Assembly: GCA_046760145.1 (NCBI GenBank)
Contig: JBHIDO010000002.1
Span: 1-58,086, forward strand
Length of the DNA stretch: 58,086 bases
Source: Candidatus Aenigmatarchaeota archaeon
GTDB taxonomy: Archaea > Aenigmatarchaeota > Aenigmatarchaeia > Aenigmatarchaeales > Aenigmatarchaeaceae
Direction of reading: 5' to 3'
Below are positions 6,105 through 43,672 of this stretch, in pieces (the stretch's first letter is position 1; every line of letters begins with the position of its first letter). Made by a program: the position numbers and the translations under genes. The notes under the pieces were generated by a model, which saw only the letters and a program-made list of their open reading frames with translations, had not been told where the DNA came from and ran no database searches.

Positions 6105-6148
6105 TCCTTTCTTTAATTCTAAATTGGGCCCATAGCTCAGTCTGGTAG

Positions 6149-6822
6149 AAAGGAGGAACAAAAATGATTAATAAAGATGTAGCAGAATTGGTTGGCGTAC
6201 ATCTGGGAGATGGACGTATGTCCCATTATTTTGCTAGATCTGAGGATATCTTTAGATTTGAAATTTTGTTCACAGGAGATTGGGACAAAGACTCTAGATA
6301 TTATAAAGAAGTTTTACAACCCATAGTAATTAGAAACTTTGGAATTAAAGGTCATATAAAACATAGAAGAGACGATGATACAGTTAGATACGTGATTAAA
6401 AGCAAGAAACTTGCAACGTTTTTTGTACGACTTGAAATACCTGTTGGGAAAAAAGCAGAGATATGTAAAATACCCTCTGAAGTAATTTGTGACATAGATT
6501 TATCTATCGCTTGTATTAGAGGTATTTTCAATAGTGACGGCAGTATTTATAGAAGATATAATAAACGTTATAAAAATACGCCTGAAGACTATTACAAATA
6601 TGCAGTTGTACAGTTCAAAATGAAAAGCAAAGATTTGATTAAGCAAATAAAAGACGTTTTGAATAGCCTCCATATTAGAACAACTAAAATAAGCAGAAAC
6701 TGTAATAGTTGGGTATTAAGAATAACGCATCAGAAATCTATTGACATCTTTTTTGATTTATTTAAAATAAACCACAATTATCACTTGAAAAGGTATAATG
6801 ATATTCGTTCCTCTTTGCCAAA
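6149..6822 (+). mobile_element. ORF-bearing bulge-helix-bulge (BHB) intron of tRNA-Lys(CUU)
   Basis: A 10-bp intron helix pairs AAGGAGGAAC (6150-6159) with GTTCCTCTTT (6807-6816). A 4-bp central helix pairs TGGT (6143-6146) with GCCA (6817-6820). It is flanked by 3-nt bulges AG|A (6147-6149) and AA|A (6821-6823). The exon-side outer helix is weak. Confidence 0.8.
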
Positions 6823-6838
6823 AGCAACTGGCTCTTAA
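6164..6838 (+). CDS. Double-motif LAGLIDADG homing endonuclease-like protein (intron-encoded)
   Basis: Motif 1 is LVGVHLGDGRM and motif 2 is CIRGIFNSDGSIY. A GGAGG SD lies 8 nt upstream of the ATG. The last 5 codons and the TAA lie in the 3' exon; the TAA is anticodon-loop positions 36-38. Confidence 0.85.
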   Translation: MINKDVAELVGVHLGDGRMSHYFARSEDIFRFEILFTGDWDKDSRYYKEVLQPIVIRNFGIKGHIKHRRDDDTVRYVIKSKKLATFFVRLEIPVGKKAEICKIPSEVICDIDLSIACIRGIFNSDGSIYRRYNKRYKNTPEDYYKYAVVQFKMKSKDLIKQIKDVLNSLHIRTTKISRNCNSWVLRITHQKSIDIFFDLFKINHNYHLKRYNDIRSSLPKATGS

Positions 6839-6909
6839 CCAGTAGGTCGCGGGTTCGAATCCCGTTGGGCCCACCAATCTTTTTAAAGAACATTCAACAT
6901 AATTTAGTT

Positions 6910-26406: not shown

Positions 26407-26453
26407 AAAAACACTTGGTGCGGCCGCTGGGATTTGAACCCAGGTCATCAGCT

Positions 26454-26467
26454 TTCTTCATAGTCTA
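26454..26467 (-). other. tRNA-Gly intron 2 (14 nt, canonical 37/38)
   Basis: TAGACTATGAAGAA. The central helix pairs CTTC (positions 32-35) with GAAG, and the bulges are CA|T and AA|A. Confidence 0.8.
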
Positions 26468-26475
26468 TGGAAGGC

Positions 26476-26492
26476 TTACCCACATAAATGTT
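26476..26492 (-). other. tRNA-Gly intron 1 (17 nt, position 29/30)
   Basis: AACATTTATGTGGGTAA. The central helix pairs ACCT with GGGT, the bulges are CA|A and AA|G, and 3-bp helices lie on both sides. Confidence 0.8.
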
Positions 26493-26508
26493 TGAGGTCC
26501 TAACCAGA

Positions 26509-27360
26509 CTAGACTACGGCCGCATTATCAAATAATTTCAATAGTTTCTCTATTTCTTGATTATTGAACATTGCTAGTGCCCAAGAGTTCATAGTTCTAT
26601 CTGGATATATTTTAGCTTTGATATTTGCCTTATTTAAGATATCAAGAACGTCCTTTAAAAGTATTTTAGTACTCTGTTTTATTGCTAGTGTTCTTCTACC
26701 ATCTTTACGCATACTTAATGAACCATCAGAATCGTAAAGACCACGTATAAAATTTATCTGAAGTAATAGTGGAGCATCTTTTATAATTTTCGGAACTCGT
26801 ATATTATTCTTTTTCTTTCCTTCTGGTAAATCAAATACATACATCAAAAATTGTTTAATAGGAATTGAGGTAAAGGATAGAACAGAATAATTCCTGTAGT
26901 TTATAATTTTAGATTCAACATTGAAGGTATTATCAACTATAGTTTTTATTACTCTTAAATCTTTACTTGATATTGTAATAGTAGCTCTTTCAGTTGTAAT
27001 TCCACCATCACCAATAATAACACCTATTAAGTAAGCTAATTTATTATTTAATCTTCTTGGTAATTGTATTATTTTACCATTTCTAGAAGAAAATCCACTC
27101 ATTATTTTGTATGCTTCATCAATATATTTTGTATTTGATAGTCTTTTACATAAATAAATAAAATTTCTAATTGAAATTGGAGTAGATTTCTTCCATTTGT
27201 AAATAAGTGATTTATGTACACTAAGTTCTTTAGATAAATCTGAAATAGAAATTTTTAACTTTAACATTTCTAAGATTTCAGAAACTAGAGATGTTATCCC
27301 ATGAATGTAAATATTTTGATTTGTTTTTCCTAGTTTTATTAAATAATTTCTTATTTCCAT
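26509..27360 (-). CDS. LAGLIDADG homing endonuclease-like protein with an N-terminal HTH extension
   Basis: HTH-like ISISDLSKELSVHKSLIYKWKK; motif 1 LIGVIIGDGGI; motif 2 FIRGLYDSDGSL. The last 5 codons and the TAG (GCG GCC GTA GTC TAG) are positions 1-15 of tRNA-Gly. Confidence 0.85.
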   Translation of the reverse strand: MEIRNYLIKLGKTNQNIYIHGITSLVSEILEMLKLKISISDLSKELSVHKSLIYKWKKSTPISIRNFIYLCKRLSNTKYIDEAYKIMSGFSSRNGKIIQLPRRLNNKLAYLIGVIIGDGGITTERATITISSKDLRVIKTIVDNTFNVESKIINYRNYSVLSFTSIPIKQFLMYVFDLPEGKKKNNIRVPKIIKDAPLLLQINFIRGLYDSDGSLSMRKDGRRTLAIKQSTKILLKDVLDILNKANIKAKIYPDRTMNSWALAMFNNQEIEKLLKLFDNAAVV

Positions 27361-30927: not shown

Positions 30928-31629
30928 CTAGTTATAATCTTCTCTAATATACTTTATATCTTTTAATTTCTTTCCTAACAATAATCTCATATCTCCTTTG
31001 AACCATGTCCATAATGTTTTTAAATAACCATGCTTTTCCATTCTTCTTGTTGAAACTTTAACATTTAACCTCTTGTCATAAGTTATTTTTCCTAATTTTC
31101 TGAATCTAAAACTCAAATCTGCATCGTCAGAATGCGGTAAAATTCTATAACCTCCTATTTTTTGAAAAACATCTTTTTTAAAAGCAGAATTTGTTCCACC
31201 TAAACAATAATACTTGAATAAACTAGATATTCTTATTAAATATCTTAAAAAGAAAAAGGTTATTTTTGATTTTCTAGTTTTTTCTATTGGCTCATCAGGA
31301 CCACAAACAGCAATTGAACCATTATTTAGGTGATATAAAATGTTTTCTAACCAATCTTTTGGAACGATAACATCTGCATCTGTTGTTGCAACAAAATCAT
31401 ACTTTGCAATTCTTATTCCATCATTTCTTGCACCGGCAACACCTTTGCTTTTCTGAATAATAACCTTATCTGCATATTTTTTTGCAATTTCCCTTGTTCT
31501 ATCATTAGAATTTCCATCCACAACTATTACTTCATAAGAATTTCTAGGAATTGTTTGATTTGTTAATTTTTTCAATGTTCTTTCTATAAATTTTTCTTCA
31601 TTATAGGTTGGTATTATCACTGATATCAT
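30928..31629 (-). CDS. Glycosyltransferase family 2
   Basis: ISVIIPTYNEE, VVDGNSNDRT, TDADV (DxD). Confidence 0.85.
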   Translation of the reverse strand: MISVIIPTYNEEKFIERTLKKLTNQTIPRNSYEVIVVDGNSNDRTREIAKKYADKVIIQKSKGVAGARNDGIRIAKYDFVATTDADVIVPKDWLENILYHLNNGSIAVCGPDEPIEKTRKSKITFFFLRYLIRISSLFKYYCLGGTNSAFKKDVFQKIGGYRILPHSDDADLSFRFRKLGKITYDKRLNVKVSTRRMEKHGYLKTLWTWFKGDMRLLLGKKLKDIKYIREDYN

Positions 31630-31669
31630 TTTATCACCTGGTGCCTGGGGTGGGATTTGAACCCACGAC

Positions 31670-31697
31670 TTCTAGCCTCTTTTTTGTATTTAGAGGT
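31670..31697 (-). other. tRNA(CAU) intron 3 (28 nt, 45/46 in the variable loop)
   Basis: The central helix pairs CTAG with CTAG, the bulges are AG|A and AA|G, and the intron helix pairs CCTCT with AGAGG. Removal creates the variable loop AGGTC. Confidence 0.75.
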
Positions 31698-31705
31698 CTC
31701 TAGAT

Positions 31706-31759
31706 CTCTCAGCTGACTAAGTTTTCAGTCATGCCTTAAGGTCATAACTCATAACAACT
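31706..31759 (-). other. tRNA(CAU) intron 2 (54 nt, canonical 37/38)
   Basis: The central helix pairs CTCA (32-35) with TGAG, and the bulges are TA|A and AG|A. It is flanked by the 5-bp anticodon stem CTAGA/TCTAG and the intron helix GTTG/CAGC. Confidence 0.8.
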
Positions 31760-31766
31760 TATGAGT

Positions 31767-31779
31767 TTCGCCAATTTTT
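31767..31779 (-). other. tRNA(CAU) intron 1 (13 nt, 30/31)
   Basis: AAAAATTGGCGAA. The central helix pairs CGCT with GGCG, the bulges are AG|A and AA|A, and the exon helix pairs GAG with CTC. Confidence 0.8.
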
Positions 31780-31787
31780 CTAGCGCT

Positions 31788-32411
31788 CTAACCAGCTGAG
31801 CCACCCAGGCTCATTTTTTCATTCAACCAATTTTTATATTTTGTTTGATGTTTAGGATTTATAAATCCTACCTCTTTATAAAATATTTTGGTATTTCTAT
31901 ATCCATTAAATTGTAGACGTGTGAATTTTGGATATAAACCGCCTTTCATACCAATACTTTCTAATTTTTGTTTTATTTGTTCTAATAATGGAATAGAAAT
32001 ACTTCTAAATTCTATTCTTGGATACATTATACCATTATTATTAGTAATAACTAGAGAACCATCAGTTGCAAAAATTCCGGATATAATATCTTTCTCTAAA
32101 TTATGATCGAAGAATATTTTAGGAATAGATATATTTTTCTTTTTACCAACAGGAAAGCCCAAAGATTTTATGTACTCAAAAAGTTCTTTATCAGAGAAAT
32201 TTATTTCTATTTTCCCATGTTTGGACCTTTTCTTATATACAACTTTCTTTTTTCTAATCTTAGCCAAAATTGGGATAACTATCTTGTCAAAGAAAGGTTG
32301 GTCATTATAATAATTACAGGTTATAACTATGGCTCTTGCTCTAGAATATCTAGAGAGACAACCATCACCAATTAGTATTCCATAAAGATTTGCTAAATCT
32401 TTGTTAATCAT
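31788..32411 (-). CDS. Double-motif LAGLIDADG homing endonuclease-like protein
   Basis: Motif 1 is LYGILIGDGCL and motif 2 is IISGIFATDGSL. Its N-terminus MINKDLANL parallels the intron-encoded paralog. Its last 7 codons and the TAG are positions 1-23 of the tRNA(CAU). Its start overlaps the DUF362 stop. Confidence 0.85.
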   Translation of the reverse strand: MINKDLANLYGILIGDGCLSRYSRARAIVITCNYYNDQPFFDKIVIPILAKIRKKKVVYKKRSKHGKIEINFSDKELFEYIKSLGFPVGKKKNISIPKIFFDHNLEKDIISGIFATDGSLVITNNNGIMYPRIEFRSISIPLLEQIKQKLESIGMKGGLYPKFTRLQFNGYRNTKIFYKEVGFINPKHQTKYKNWLNEKMSLGGSAG

Positions 32412-33222: not shown

Positions 33223-33376
33223 TGGTGGGCCCGACGGGATTCGAACCCGCGACTCCCGGGTTTAAAGACCGAGACTAACAGTCTGCAGGTTTTCTTCCTG
33301 TCATTGCTAAAAGCTCAACATGCTTTTATCCTGACGGATAAAAGCCCGGTACTCTACCAGACTGAGTTACGGGCCC
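33223..33376 (-). tRNA. tRNA-Lys (probably UUU) with a 77-nt insertion in the anticodon loop; splice junctions unresolved; CCA encoded
   Basis: GGGCCCG TA ACTC AGTCTGGTA GAGT A CCGGG CTTTTA [77 nt] A CCCGG GAGTC GCGGG TTCGAAT CCCGT CGGGCCC A CCA. All four arms pair perfectly. Confidence 0.7.
33262..33338 (-). other. Intervening sequence of tRNA-Lys(UUU), drawn at 37/38; no BHB found by eye
   Basis: It begins with a perfect 10-bp hairpin GCTTTTATCC-GTCA-GGATAAAAGC (33322-33345) that buries the anticodon loop. It ends in ...CTCGGTCTTTAA. Confidence 0.5.
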
Positions 33377-43560: not shown

Positions 43561-43672
43561 TCCCGTCTGGGAGATTCGAACTCCCGACCTACCGGTTTCT
43601 GAGCAACTGCTAAATGAGCAATACAAATGTAAAGCTCTACAGCCGGTCGCTCTACCACTGAGCTAAGACGGG
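43561..43672 (-). tRNA. tRNA-Tyr(GUA) with one 40-nt intron at 37/38; no encoded CCA
   Basis: CCCGTCT TA GCTC AGTGGTA GAGC G ACCGG CTGTAG [40 nt] A CCGGT AGGTC GGGAG TTCGAAT CTCCC AGACGGG A. It has the C1-G72 pair typical of archaeal tRNA-Tyr. Confidence 0.9.
43597..43636 (-). other. tRNA-Tyr intron (40 nt, 37/38)
   Basis: A near-canonical BHB. CTG of 32-34 pairs with CAG, with one T-T mismatch in the 4-bp helix. The bulges are AG|A and AA|A. Confidence 0.7.

Follow-up and report, generated by a model that had tools for sequence, protein, structure and literature searches.

The 58,086-nucleotide stretch analysed here (positions 1 to 58,086 of contig JBHIDO010000002.1, assembly GCA_046760145.1, Candidatus Aenigmatarchaeota archaeon; hereafter the window) carries on its minus strand a 172-nt gene for a transfer RNA (tRNA) with a CAU anticodon, and our analysis confirmed the locus as a real archaeal tRNA(CAU) gene interrupted by three small introns of the predicted protein-spliced kind. 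The gene very probably encodes a functional tRNA, most likely the elongator tRNA-Met, with three bulge-helix-bulge (BHB) introns, in an AT-rich DPANN archaeon resembling Aenigmarchaeota. Such a three-intron structure is extreme but of a known kind; the part likely to be new is the linkage of tRNA genes to a family of LAGLIDADG endonuclease genes, a member of which abuts this one. Coordinates are collected in Table 1.

The Rfam tRNA covariance model RF00005 matched the minus strand from 31810 to 31642 with 49.8 bits (gathering score 29), aligning the acceptor, D and T arms perfectly and leaving 104 nt unaligned within the anticodon arm, while ARAGORN did not detect the gene in the unspliced window sequence. 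Removal of the three segments gives the predicted product GCCTGGGTGGCTCAGCTGGTTAGAGCGCTAGACTCATAATCTAGAGGTCGTGGGTTCAAATCCCACCCCAGGCA followed by CCA, a 74-nt cloverleaf (77 nt with CCA) that ARAGORN called as tRNA-Met(CAT) and in which all stems are fully paired with no mismatch. The anticodon stem CTAGA/TCTAG, the 7-nt loop CTCATAA with U33 and A37, and the variable loop AGGTC had been predicted in an earlier, sequence-only reading of the window; they are seen in the spliced product and recur identically in the orthologous locus L008. The same 172-nt precursor sequence, letter for letter, is present in three contigs from assemblies of different sequencing runs, and is therefore not an assembly artefact. 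An exact 27-mer of exon 1 had no match in the species-representative genomes. The AT-rich setting noted in the earlier reading is borne out by a window G+C content of 29.3%. The TATA-like element upstream of the gene is possibly the promoter of the tRNA itself, although at 29% GC such an element is weak evidence. At the other end of the gene (31629-31645, minus strand), the CCA shares sequence with GGTGAT, a Shine-Dalgarno-like element placed 9 nt ahead of a glycosyltransferase gene, an arrangement that shows how tightly the genes are packed.

Table 1. Features of the tRNA(CAU) gene and of related loci in the window. Arrows mark predicted cuts; scores in brackets give the lengths of the central (H), outer and inner helices.
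Feature	Position	Strand	Description
pre-tRNA(CAU) gene	31639..31810	-	172 nt including encoded CCA (31641-31639); Rfam, and ARAGORN on the spliced product; three introns
Exon 1	31780..31810	-	acceptor 5′ strand, D-arm, position 26, anticodon-stem positions 27-30 (GCCTGGGTGGCTCAGCTGGTTAGAGCGCTAG)
Intron 1	31767..31779	-	13 nt at 30/31 (AAAAATTGGCGAA); CGCT AG↓A ... GGCG AA↓A (4,3,1)
Exon 2	31760..31766	-	positions 31-37 (ACTCATA), holds the CAU anticodon
Intron 2	31706..31759	-	54 nt at the canonical 37/38; CTCA TA↓A ... TGAG AG↓A (4,1,4)
Exon 3	31698..31705	-	positions 38-45 (ATCTAGAG)
Intron 3	31670..31697	-	28 nt at 45/46, variable loop; CTAG AG↓A ... CTAG AA↓G (4,0,5)
Exon 4	31639..31669	-	positions 46-73 plus CCA (GTCGTGGGTTCAAATCCCACCCCAGGCACCA)
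9-bp hairpin	31746..31767	-	AACTCATAA-GTTG-TTATGAGTT; anticodon loop paired with the 5′ part of intron 2
TATA-like element	31831..31842	-	AAAATATAAAAA; -32 to -21 relative to the tRNA, inside the endonuclease ORF; read from sequence
LAGLIDADG homing-endonuclease-type ORF, 207 aa	31788..32411	-	directly upstream of tRNA(CAU)
Paralogue LAGLIDADG ORF, 283 aa	26509-27360	-	ends 15 nt inside the 5′ end of tRNA-Gly(UCC), layout as at tRNA-Met
Paralogue LAGLIDADG ORF, 224 aa	6164-6838	+	inside the 674-nt intron of tRNA-Lys(CUU)
LAGLIDADG_3 ORF, 245 aa	27990-28727	-	fourth and more divergent; Pfam 27.8 bits
tRNA-Gly(UCC)	26419-26523	-	17 nt at 29/30 (4,3,3) and 14 nt at 37/38 (4,3,1)
tRNA-Lys(UUU)	33226-33376	-	two abutting introns, 18 nt (33338-33321) and 59 nt (33320-33262)
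tRNA-Tyr(GUA)	43561-43672	-	one canonical 40-nt intron at 37/38 (3,5,2), central helix slightly imperfect
tRNA-Lys(CUU)	6126-6877	+	one 674-nt intron at 22/23

BHB motifs were coded so that the 4 nt before the 5′ bulge pair with the 4 nt before the 3′ bulge, with 3-nt bulges each cut after the second base, a geometry that agrees with the classical pairing of position 32 with intron position -3. The sequence-only reading named the helix pairs (CGCT/GGCG, CTCA/TGAG, CTAG/CTAG) and the cut sites correctly, but its description of each motif as a near-perfect BHB was an overstatement, since all three are relaxed (hBH/BHL for intron 1, HBh′ for introns 2 and 3) and none is a full hBHBh′. Intron 1 has an outer helix of 3 bp and a 6-nt loop; intron 2 has a 4-bp inner helix (GTTG/CAGC), its outer helix being the anticodon stem, which is complete only once intron 1 is gone; and intron 3 has a 5-bp inner helix (CCTCT/AGAGG). 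No intron has both flanking helices in the primary transcript, and each has at least one (3, 4 and 5 bp).

Single BHB-like motifs are common, with 27 within the 172 nt, and when junctions were placed arbitrarily a formally valid arm resulted from 46 two-segment and 4533 three-segment removals, though from no one-segment removal, so that restoration of the cloverleaf alone does not discriminate. Neither does a permissive solver (H=4 plus a 2-bp flank), which returned dozens of spurious tRNAs. Seven BHB candidates lie in the anticodon arm, and exactly one combination of them gives a valid arm; this is the parse of the sequence-only reading, which matches the sequence exactly. None of the 46 two-segment solutions is BHB-bounded, and any BHB-bounded solution at all was obtained with shuffled inserts in 1 of 3000 cases. 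The earlier claim of a CAU tRNA with three introns in 172 nt is thus upheld, and the lengths and positions of the removed segments hold up under the enumeration, under the test of alternative junctions and among orthologues. The possibility that intron 2 holds a box C/D guide RNA was also considered and rejected: the intron had no match in Rfam at a permissive threshold, and its loose UGA-rich motifs are explained by BHB complementarity.

Orthologous tRNA(CAU) genes were gathered through glycosyltransferase synteny, homologues of the upstream ORF and a DNA pattern scan, and are referred to by locus numbers (L). Intron positions in eight of these orthologues were parsed by eye and then verified, with sliding of the junctions. 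In L008, where the upstream ORF is 65% identical, introns are found at 30/31 (11 nt, AAATTGGCGAA) and 38/39 (39 nt) and there is no third intron; a single strict-BHB solution exists, its arm and variable loop (CTAGA-CTCATAA-TCTAG-AGGTC) are identical to those predicted for the window, and the gene reads TCTAGAGGTC uninterrupted where the window has intron 3. Introns of L011 are at 15/16 (31 nt), 30/31 (13 nt) and 37/38 (48 nt), the last of these (...TATGAGTTATGACC...GCTGAGAG↓ATCT) being visibly homologous to intron 2 of the window. Other relatives carry introns at 30/31 (55 nt) and 37/38 (47 nt) in L016, at 31/32 (23 nt) and 38/39 (34 nt) in L009, at 38/39 (34 nt) in L006, in the acceptor stem (32 nt) and at 38/39 (29 nt) in L004, and at 30/31 (12 nt) and 37/38 (43 nt) in L169, an Aenigmatarchaeota locus with the same acceptor stem, GCCTGGG/CCCAGGC. 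The syntenic gene of L004 (5835-5957) is flanked by a glycosyltransferase 70% identical to that of the window, and its acceptor-stem insert of about 32 nt has a relaxed motif with a junction that may fall anywhere from 3/4 to 7/8.

The 30/31 introns that end in GGCGAA are homologous in L008, L011, L169, L112 and others and are absent in L004 and L006, and intron 3 is absent in L008, L004 and L006, which read A(G/A)GTC. Bathyarchaeia loci, together with L099 and L119, combine 30/31 with 45/46 introns, and their 45/46 motif (CTGG AG↓A ... CCAG AA↓G) shares the bulges of the window motif and differs in the central helix by a compensatory pair of substitutions (G to A in the exon, C to T in the intron). 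Because relatives carry introns at 30/31, 37/38 and 45/46, each of the three positions is, on this comparison of sequences, a recurrent insertion site in this tRNA family, and what is special is the occurrence of all three in one gene; across the same relatives, intron positions appear to be turning over quickly. The sequence-only reading had stated that three-intron tRNAs are known mainly from Thermoproteales. A maximum of three introns is indeed reported from that group, but the positions are not peculiar to it, as tRNA(CAU) genes of DPANN, Bathyarchaeia and Nitrososphaeria also have introns at 30/31, and those of Bathyarchaeia at 45/46.

The intron-3 motif and the 9-bp hairpin (AACUCAUAA/UUAUGAGUU) are both part of the minimum free energy (MFE) fold of the precursor (-63.5 kcal/mol, z = -5.3), as are its acceptor, D and T stems. 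This hairpin, which the earlier reading had proposed to pair the anticodon in the precursor, is present and belongs to the MFE state, and its element CTCATAA-short loop-TTATGAG is kept in the eight orthologues first examined (the element was noted in L004, L006, L008, L009, L011, L016 and L024), in which the surrounding introns have otherwise diverged. Forcing the BHB of intron 3 gave -62.3 kcal/mol, that of intron 1 -60.3 kcal/mol, that of intron 2 -53.6 kcal/mol and all three together -48.9 kcal/mol. Introns 1 and 3 would therefore display their BHB motifs at little energetic cost, whereas the hairpin competes with the intron-2 BHB and must open for that motif to form. Because of this, and because the outer helix of intron 2 waits on the removal of intron 1, the folding model suggests sequential processing in which intron 2 would be spliced last. 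EndA, the splicing endonuclease of archaea, would cleave every 3-nt bulge behind its second base, leaving four exons for a ligase of the RtcB type to seal into a canonical tRNA of 74 nt plus the encoded CCA; we infer both enzymes and the order of events from the sequence.

Several observations weigh against this account. Formation of the intron-2 BHB carries a cost of about 10 kcal/mol relative to the MFE fold, rising to about 15 kcal/mol for the three motifs together. Exactly these three positions are combined in no other sampled locus. Among the 26 window ORFs scanned against Pfam there was no EndA or ligase gene, and since all three motifs are relaxed, a broad-specificity EndA would be needed, as such motifs require enzymes of those types (PMC5829648, PMC3239211).

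The identity of the tRNA was weighed separately from its gene structure. Initiator tRNAs have A1-U72 and an anticodon stem whose lower end is made of three G-C pairs in a row; here G1-C72 and an A/U-rich anticodon stem without a run of three G-C pairs indicate that the gene does not encode an initiator. Sequence comparison points to Met as the probable identity, with the mature sequence matching a Nitrososphaerales tRNA(CAU) at 67/74 positions (91%) and a Bathyarchaeia tRNA(CAU) at 63/74, against 54-57/75 (72-76%) for DPANN tRNA-Ile(GAU). The alternative that survives best, although we consider it unlikely, is that the same gene structure produces tRNA-Ile2, in which C34 would be modified to agmatidine and the tRNA would read AUA. 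AUA outnumbers AUG in the window (225 versus 101 of 5228 codons, AUA making up 4.3%), so that the genome must supply a decoder of AUA, and a few tRNA-Ile(GAU) genes that border a homologue of the linked endonuclease (L013, L017 and L019) resemble CAU tRNAs in the D-arm, the anticodon stem and a GGCGAA-ending 30/31 intron; both points speak for Ile2 and against Met. Ile2 resembles Ile1 in archaeal tRNA sets, but the acceptor stem here is unlike the GGGCGGG-type stems of the sampled DPANN tRNA-Ile(GAU) genes, and the sequence as a whole is closer, by the counts just given, to the cross-phylum GCCGGGG...CCCCGGC type of tRNA(CAU), which we take to be elongator Met. Against Ile2 also stands the use by some DPANN archaea of tRNA-Ile(UAU), without TiaS (PMC3239211). 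A literature search for published TiaS/Ile2 identity rules found no usable one.

A second alternative accepts the mature tRNA but has the 54-nt insert at 37/38 arise from two events, a 14-nt mini-intron (CTCA TA↓A ... TGAG TT↓A) followed by 40 nt, which would make four excisions in all. The proximal hairpin that would define the mini-intron is conserved and forms in the MFE state, and the 77-nt insert of tRNA-Lys(UUU) resolves into two abutting BHB introns by means of just such a proximal element. We nevertheless regard this reading as improbable, since the 14-nt candidate has only a 4-bp helix, next to no flanking helix and no bulges, as the hairpin pairs the bulge bases, and is for that reason not among the seven BHB candidates, while excision at full length has H=4 and an adjoining 4-bp inner helix.

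Less credible than either is a decaying or non-functional copy, in which the predicted BHBs go unused and a working tRNA(CAU) is encoded elsewhere. Three relaxed motifs and a strong competing hairpin would make processing demanding, and 58 kb is a limited view of the genome, but the four stems are free of mismatches after splicing, CCA is encoded and the TATA-like element lies at the right distance. Orthologous multi-intron genes with the same placement relative to the endonuclease occur in several diverged lineages, other tRNAs of the window are built likewise, and the uniqueness of the BHB-bounded solution, set against 1 of 3000 shuffled inserts that gave any, also argues against decay. Removal of the third segment at another junction (39/40 to 44/45), leaving AAGTC as the variable loop, is the least probable of all. 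The CTAGA repeat at both ends of intron 3 does permit six alternative 28-nt registers with valid cloverleaves, AAGTC is the variable loop of L006, L011 and L169, and the Rfam alignment picked the distal CTAG-AAGTC. In every one of these registers, however, no more than three central pairs form (H≤3) and no helix flanks them, compared with (4,0,5) at 45/46; the nearest orthologue that shares the anticodon stem (L008) reads AGGTC, and Bathyarchaeia 45/46 introns share the AG↓A and AA↓G bulges.

The ORF directly upstream of the three-intron gene matched Pfam PF14528 with 33.8 bits against a cutoff of 22.5 and contains the motifs LIGDGCL and FATDGSL, in which G15-D16-G17 and D117-G118 are invariant in 24 family sequences; its nearest solved relatives are PDB 2dch (E=1e-12), I-DmoI (1e-7) and intein endonuclease domains. 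Its last 23 nt overlap tRNA positions 1-22. The earlier reading had this ORF ending inside the D-loop, and the position of the stop stands (TAG, 31790-31788, at the border of D-loop and D-stem), whereas the overlap itself reflects incidental read-through to the first available stop; the homologous ORF of L008 runs on into intron 2. As judged from the sequences, it is the systematic linkage of this family to tRNA genes, and not the overlap, that is the meaningful fact.

Linkage of this Met type was assessed in 80 metagenomic loci (L011-L090), 77 of them with enough flank, by Rfam and a scan of both strands. A tRNA gene abuts the 3′ end of the ORF in 68 of the 77, convergently in 61 and on the same strand in 7, compared with a rate of 8.7% at random positions in the same loci. 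An estimate of 8 tRNA-linked loci among the 80, obtained with a regular expression for the T-arm on the same strand, was discarded as an undercount. Convergent loci typically overlap the tRNA by 19 or 41 nt, and the abutting tRNAs almost all have a CAU anticodon loop, with a few Ile(GAU). The loop CTCATGA, with G37 in place of A37, is found in many tRNA(CAU) genes next to an endonuclease ORF (L022, L041, L043, L047, L066-L068, L070, L073, L074 and others). In tRNAs for ANN codons, position 37 is normally an A, which is modified to N6-threonylcarbamoyladenosine (t6A).

Paralogues of the 207-aa ORF lie at two further tRNA genes of the window (Table 1). At tRNA-Lys(CUU), AAGGAGG and then the ATG of the 224-aa ORF come after the 5′ piece of the tRNA (6126-6148), and T36-A37-A38 of the anticodon loop form the stop codon of that ORF. 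The predicted D-stem intron (TGGT AG↓A ... GCCA AA↓A, cut after 6148 and 6822) has an inner helix of 10 bp in which the Shine-Dalgarno region is paired. A group I intron was rejected as the identity of this 674-nt insert, given a strong BHB and no Rfam intron hit in the window. Homologues of the Lys type lie inside a tRNA-Lys(CUU) D-stem intron in L093/L094 and in L095/L096 (GCA_975955935.1), so that the arrangement recurs in two diverged lineages with 41-44% protein identity, one of them a metagenome-assembled genome (MAG) from NCBI; in L091 the homologue lies 20 nt upstream of an intact tRNA-Lys(CUU) with a 30/31 intron. The 245-aa LAGLIDADG_3 ORF abuts no tRNA and lies about 315 nt downstream of tRNA-Thr(UGU).

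From these arrangements each endonuclease lineage appears to be dedicated to one tRNA gene. It is possible, although we hold the idea only tentatively, that the LAGLIDADG genes encode active homing endonucleases that target the tRNA genes they abut, one isoacceptor per lineage. The Met type would then target tRNA(CAU), the Lys type tRNA-Lys(CUU) and the third the tRNA-Gly(UCC) beside it, the genes being free-standing at either end of a tRNA or housed within the 674-nt D-stem BHB intron, and repeated break-and-repair could explain the intron richness of same-strand endonuclease-linked alleles such as the three-intron tRNA-Met. If true, this would make these genes the first mobility agents at the DNA level to be linked with tRNA genes and tRNA introns of archaea. 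We also considered whether the 30/31 intron shields the endonuclease target, as in the collaborative homing of some phages, but did not adopt this idea, which is weakened because 30/31 introns are widespread without an adjacent endonuclease (L169, L103, Bathyarchaeia, Nitrososphaeria) and because most endonuclease-linked tRNA(CAU) genes are intron-less.

The tRNA(CAU) gene is one of eight tRNA genes identified in the window, of which five are interrupted, by nine introns in total; ARAGORN detected three of the eight, only the uninterrupted ones. The insert of tRNA-Lys(UUU), 77 nt at 37/38, has no BHB as one unit (H=0); its two introns share the middle cut, a proximal AAAG element serves both helices, and the distal end of the insert repeats anticodon-loop sequence (CTTTAA↓A). 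CCA is encoded in the Met, Lys(CUU) (6875-6877), Lys(UUU) (33223-33225) and Gly (26416-26418) genes and not in Tyr. The closest named relatives of the flanking glycosyltransferase are from Candidatus Aenigmarchaeota/Aenigmatarchaeota MAGs, and the window encodes the archaeal markers L31e, S6e, eIF-6, Trm1 and DUF655, along with a 5S rRNA.

Among known systems, tRNA genes of Thermoproteales carry up to three BHB introns, three being the reported maximum (PMC4033280, PMC4090602). They resemble the present gene in that one tRNA has several introns of the protein-spliced kind, inserted at the canonical site as well as elsewhere and with relaxed hBH or HBh′ motifs, and differ in that their hosts are hyperthermophilic crenarchaea, whereas the window comes from an AT-rich (29% GC) archaeon of DPANN type, to which the maximum of three introns per tRNA would now extend. 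For Thermoproteales, "transposition" of introns has been inferred, with no agent known for it (PMC4033280), and the tRNA-linked LAGLIDADG family offers a testable candidate agent of tRNA-gene and intron mobility.

Marked disruption of tRNA genes in DPANN has already been reported (PMC5829648). Like ARMAN-2 and lineages with L3-loop EndA, in which multiple or non-canonically placed tRNA introns are numerous and tRNA sets look incomplete to standard predictors (PMC3239211, PMC5829648), the present genome has a tRNA(CAU) gene that a standard predictor, ARAGORN, misses; in ARMAN-2, up to two introns per tRNA (53/54 plus 59/60) have been described (PMC3239211, PMC5829648). That standard finders miss such genes bears on the "incomplete tRNA sets" and coding-capacity estimates of DPANN genomes, and a natural precursor with three different relaxed BHB forms and a competing hairpin could serve as a substrate for studies of DPANN EndA specificity and cutting order. 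Within the tRNA(CAU) family, genes of Bathyarchaeia, Nitrososphaeria and other DPANN (L112, L170, L099, L115, L169 and L150) share 63-67 of 74 mature nucleotides and the 30/31 motif CGCY AG↓N ... GGCG AA↓A with the window gene, and the 45/46 motif of Bathyarchaeia, L099 and L119 is counted as the same as that of intron 3, but genes of the former group have one or two of the three introns and most are without an adjacent LAGLIDADG ORF.

A search of the literature for LAGLIDADG genes in or beside archaeal tRNA genes found no report, nor did we find an archaeal tRNA intron described as encoding an endonuclease. Archaeal BHB introns are known to carry homing endonuclease genes, and the cases described in PMC6125680 and PMC4496867 are in rRNA genes. 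The 207-aa ORF belongs to the same class as the rRNA-intron enzymes (I-DmoI, PDB 2dch), that of monomeric, double-motif LAGLIDADG proteins, and its paralogue in tRNA-Lys(CUU) likewise lies inside a BHB intron; the hosts here, however, are tRNAs, and the Met-adjacent copy is free-standing and overlaps the 5′ end of the tRNA rather than being intronic. Ectopic and multiple BHB-like introns, including three-intron genes, also occur among the nuclear tRNAs of a red alga, Cyanidioschyzon merolae (PMC3728597, PMC9602550), which resemble the tRNA(CAU) gene of the window in this respect but belong to a eukaryotic host, with a eukaryotic endonuclease, and have no phylogenetic relation to it.

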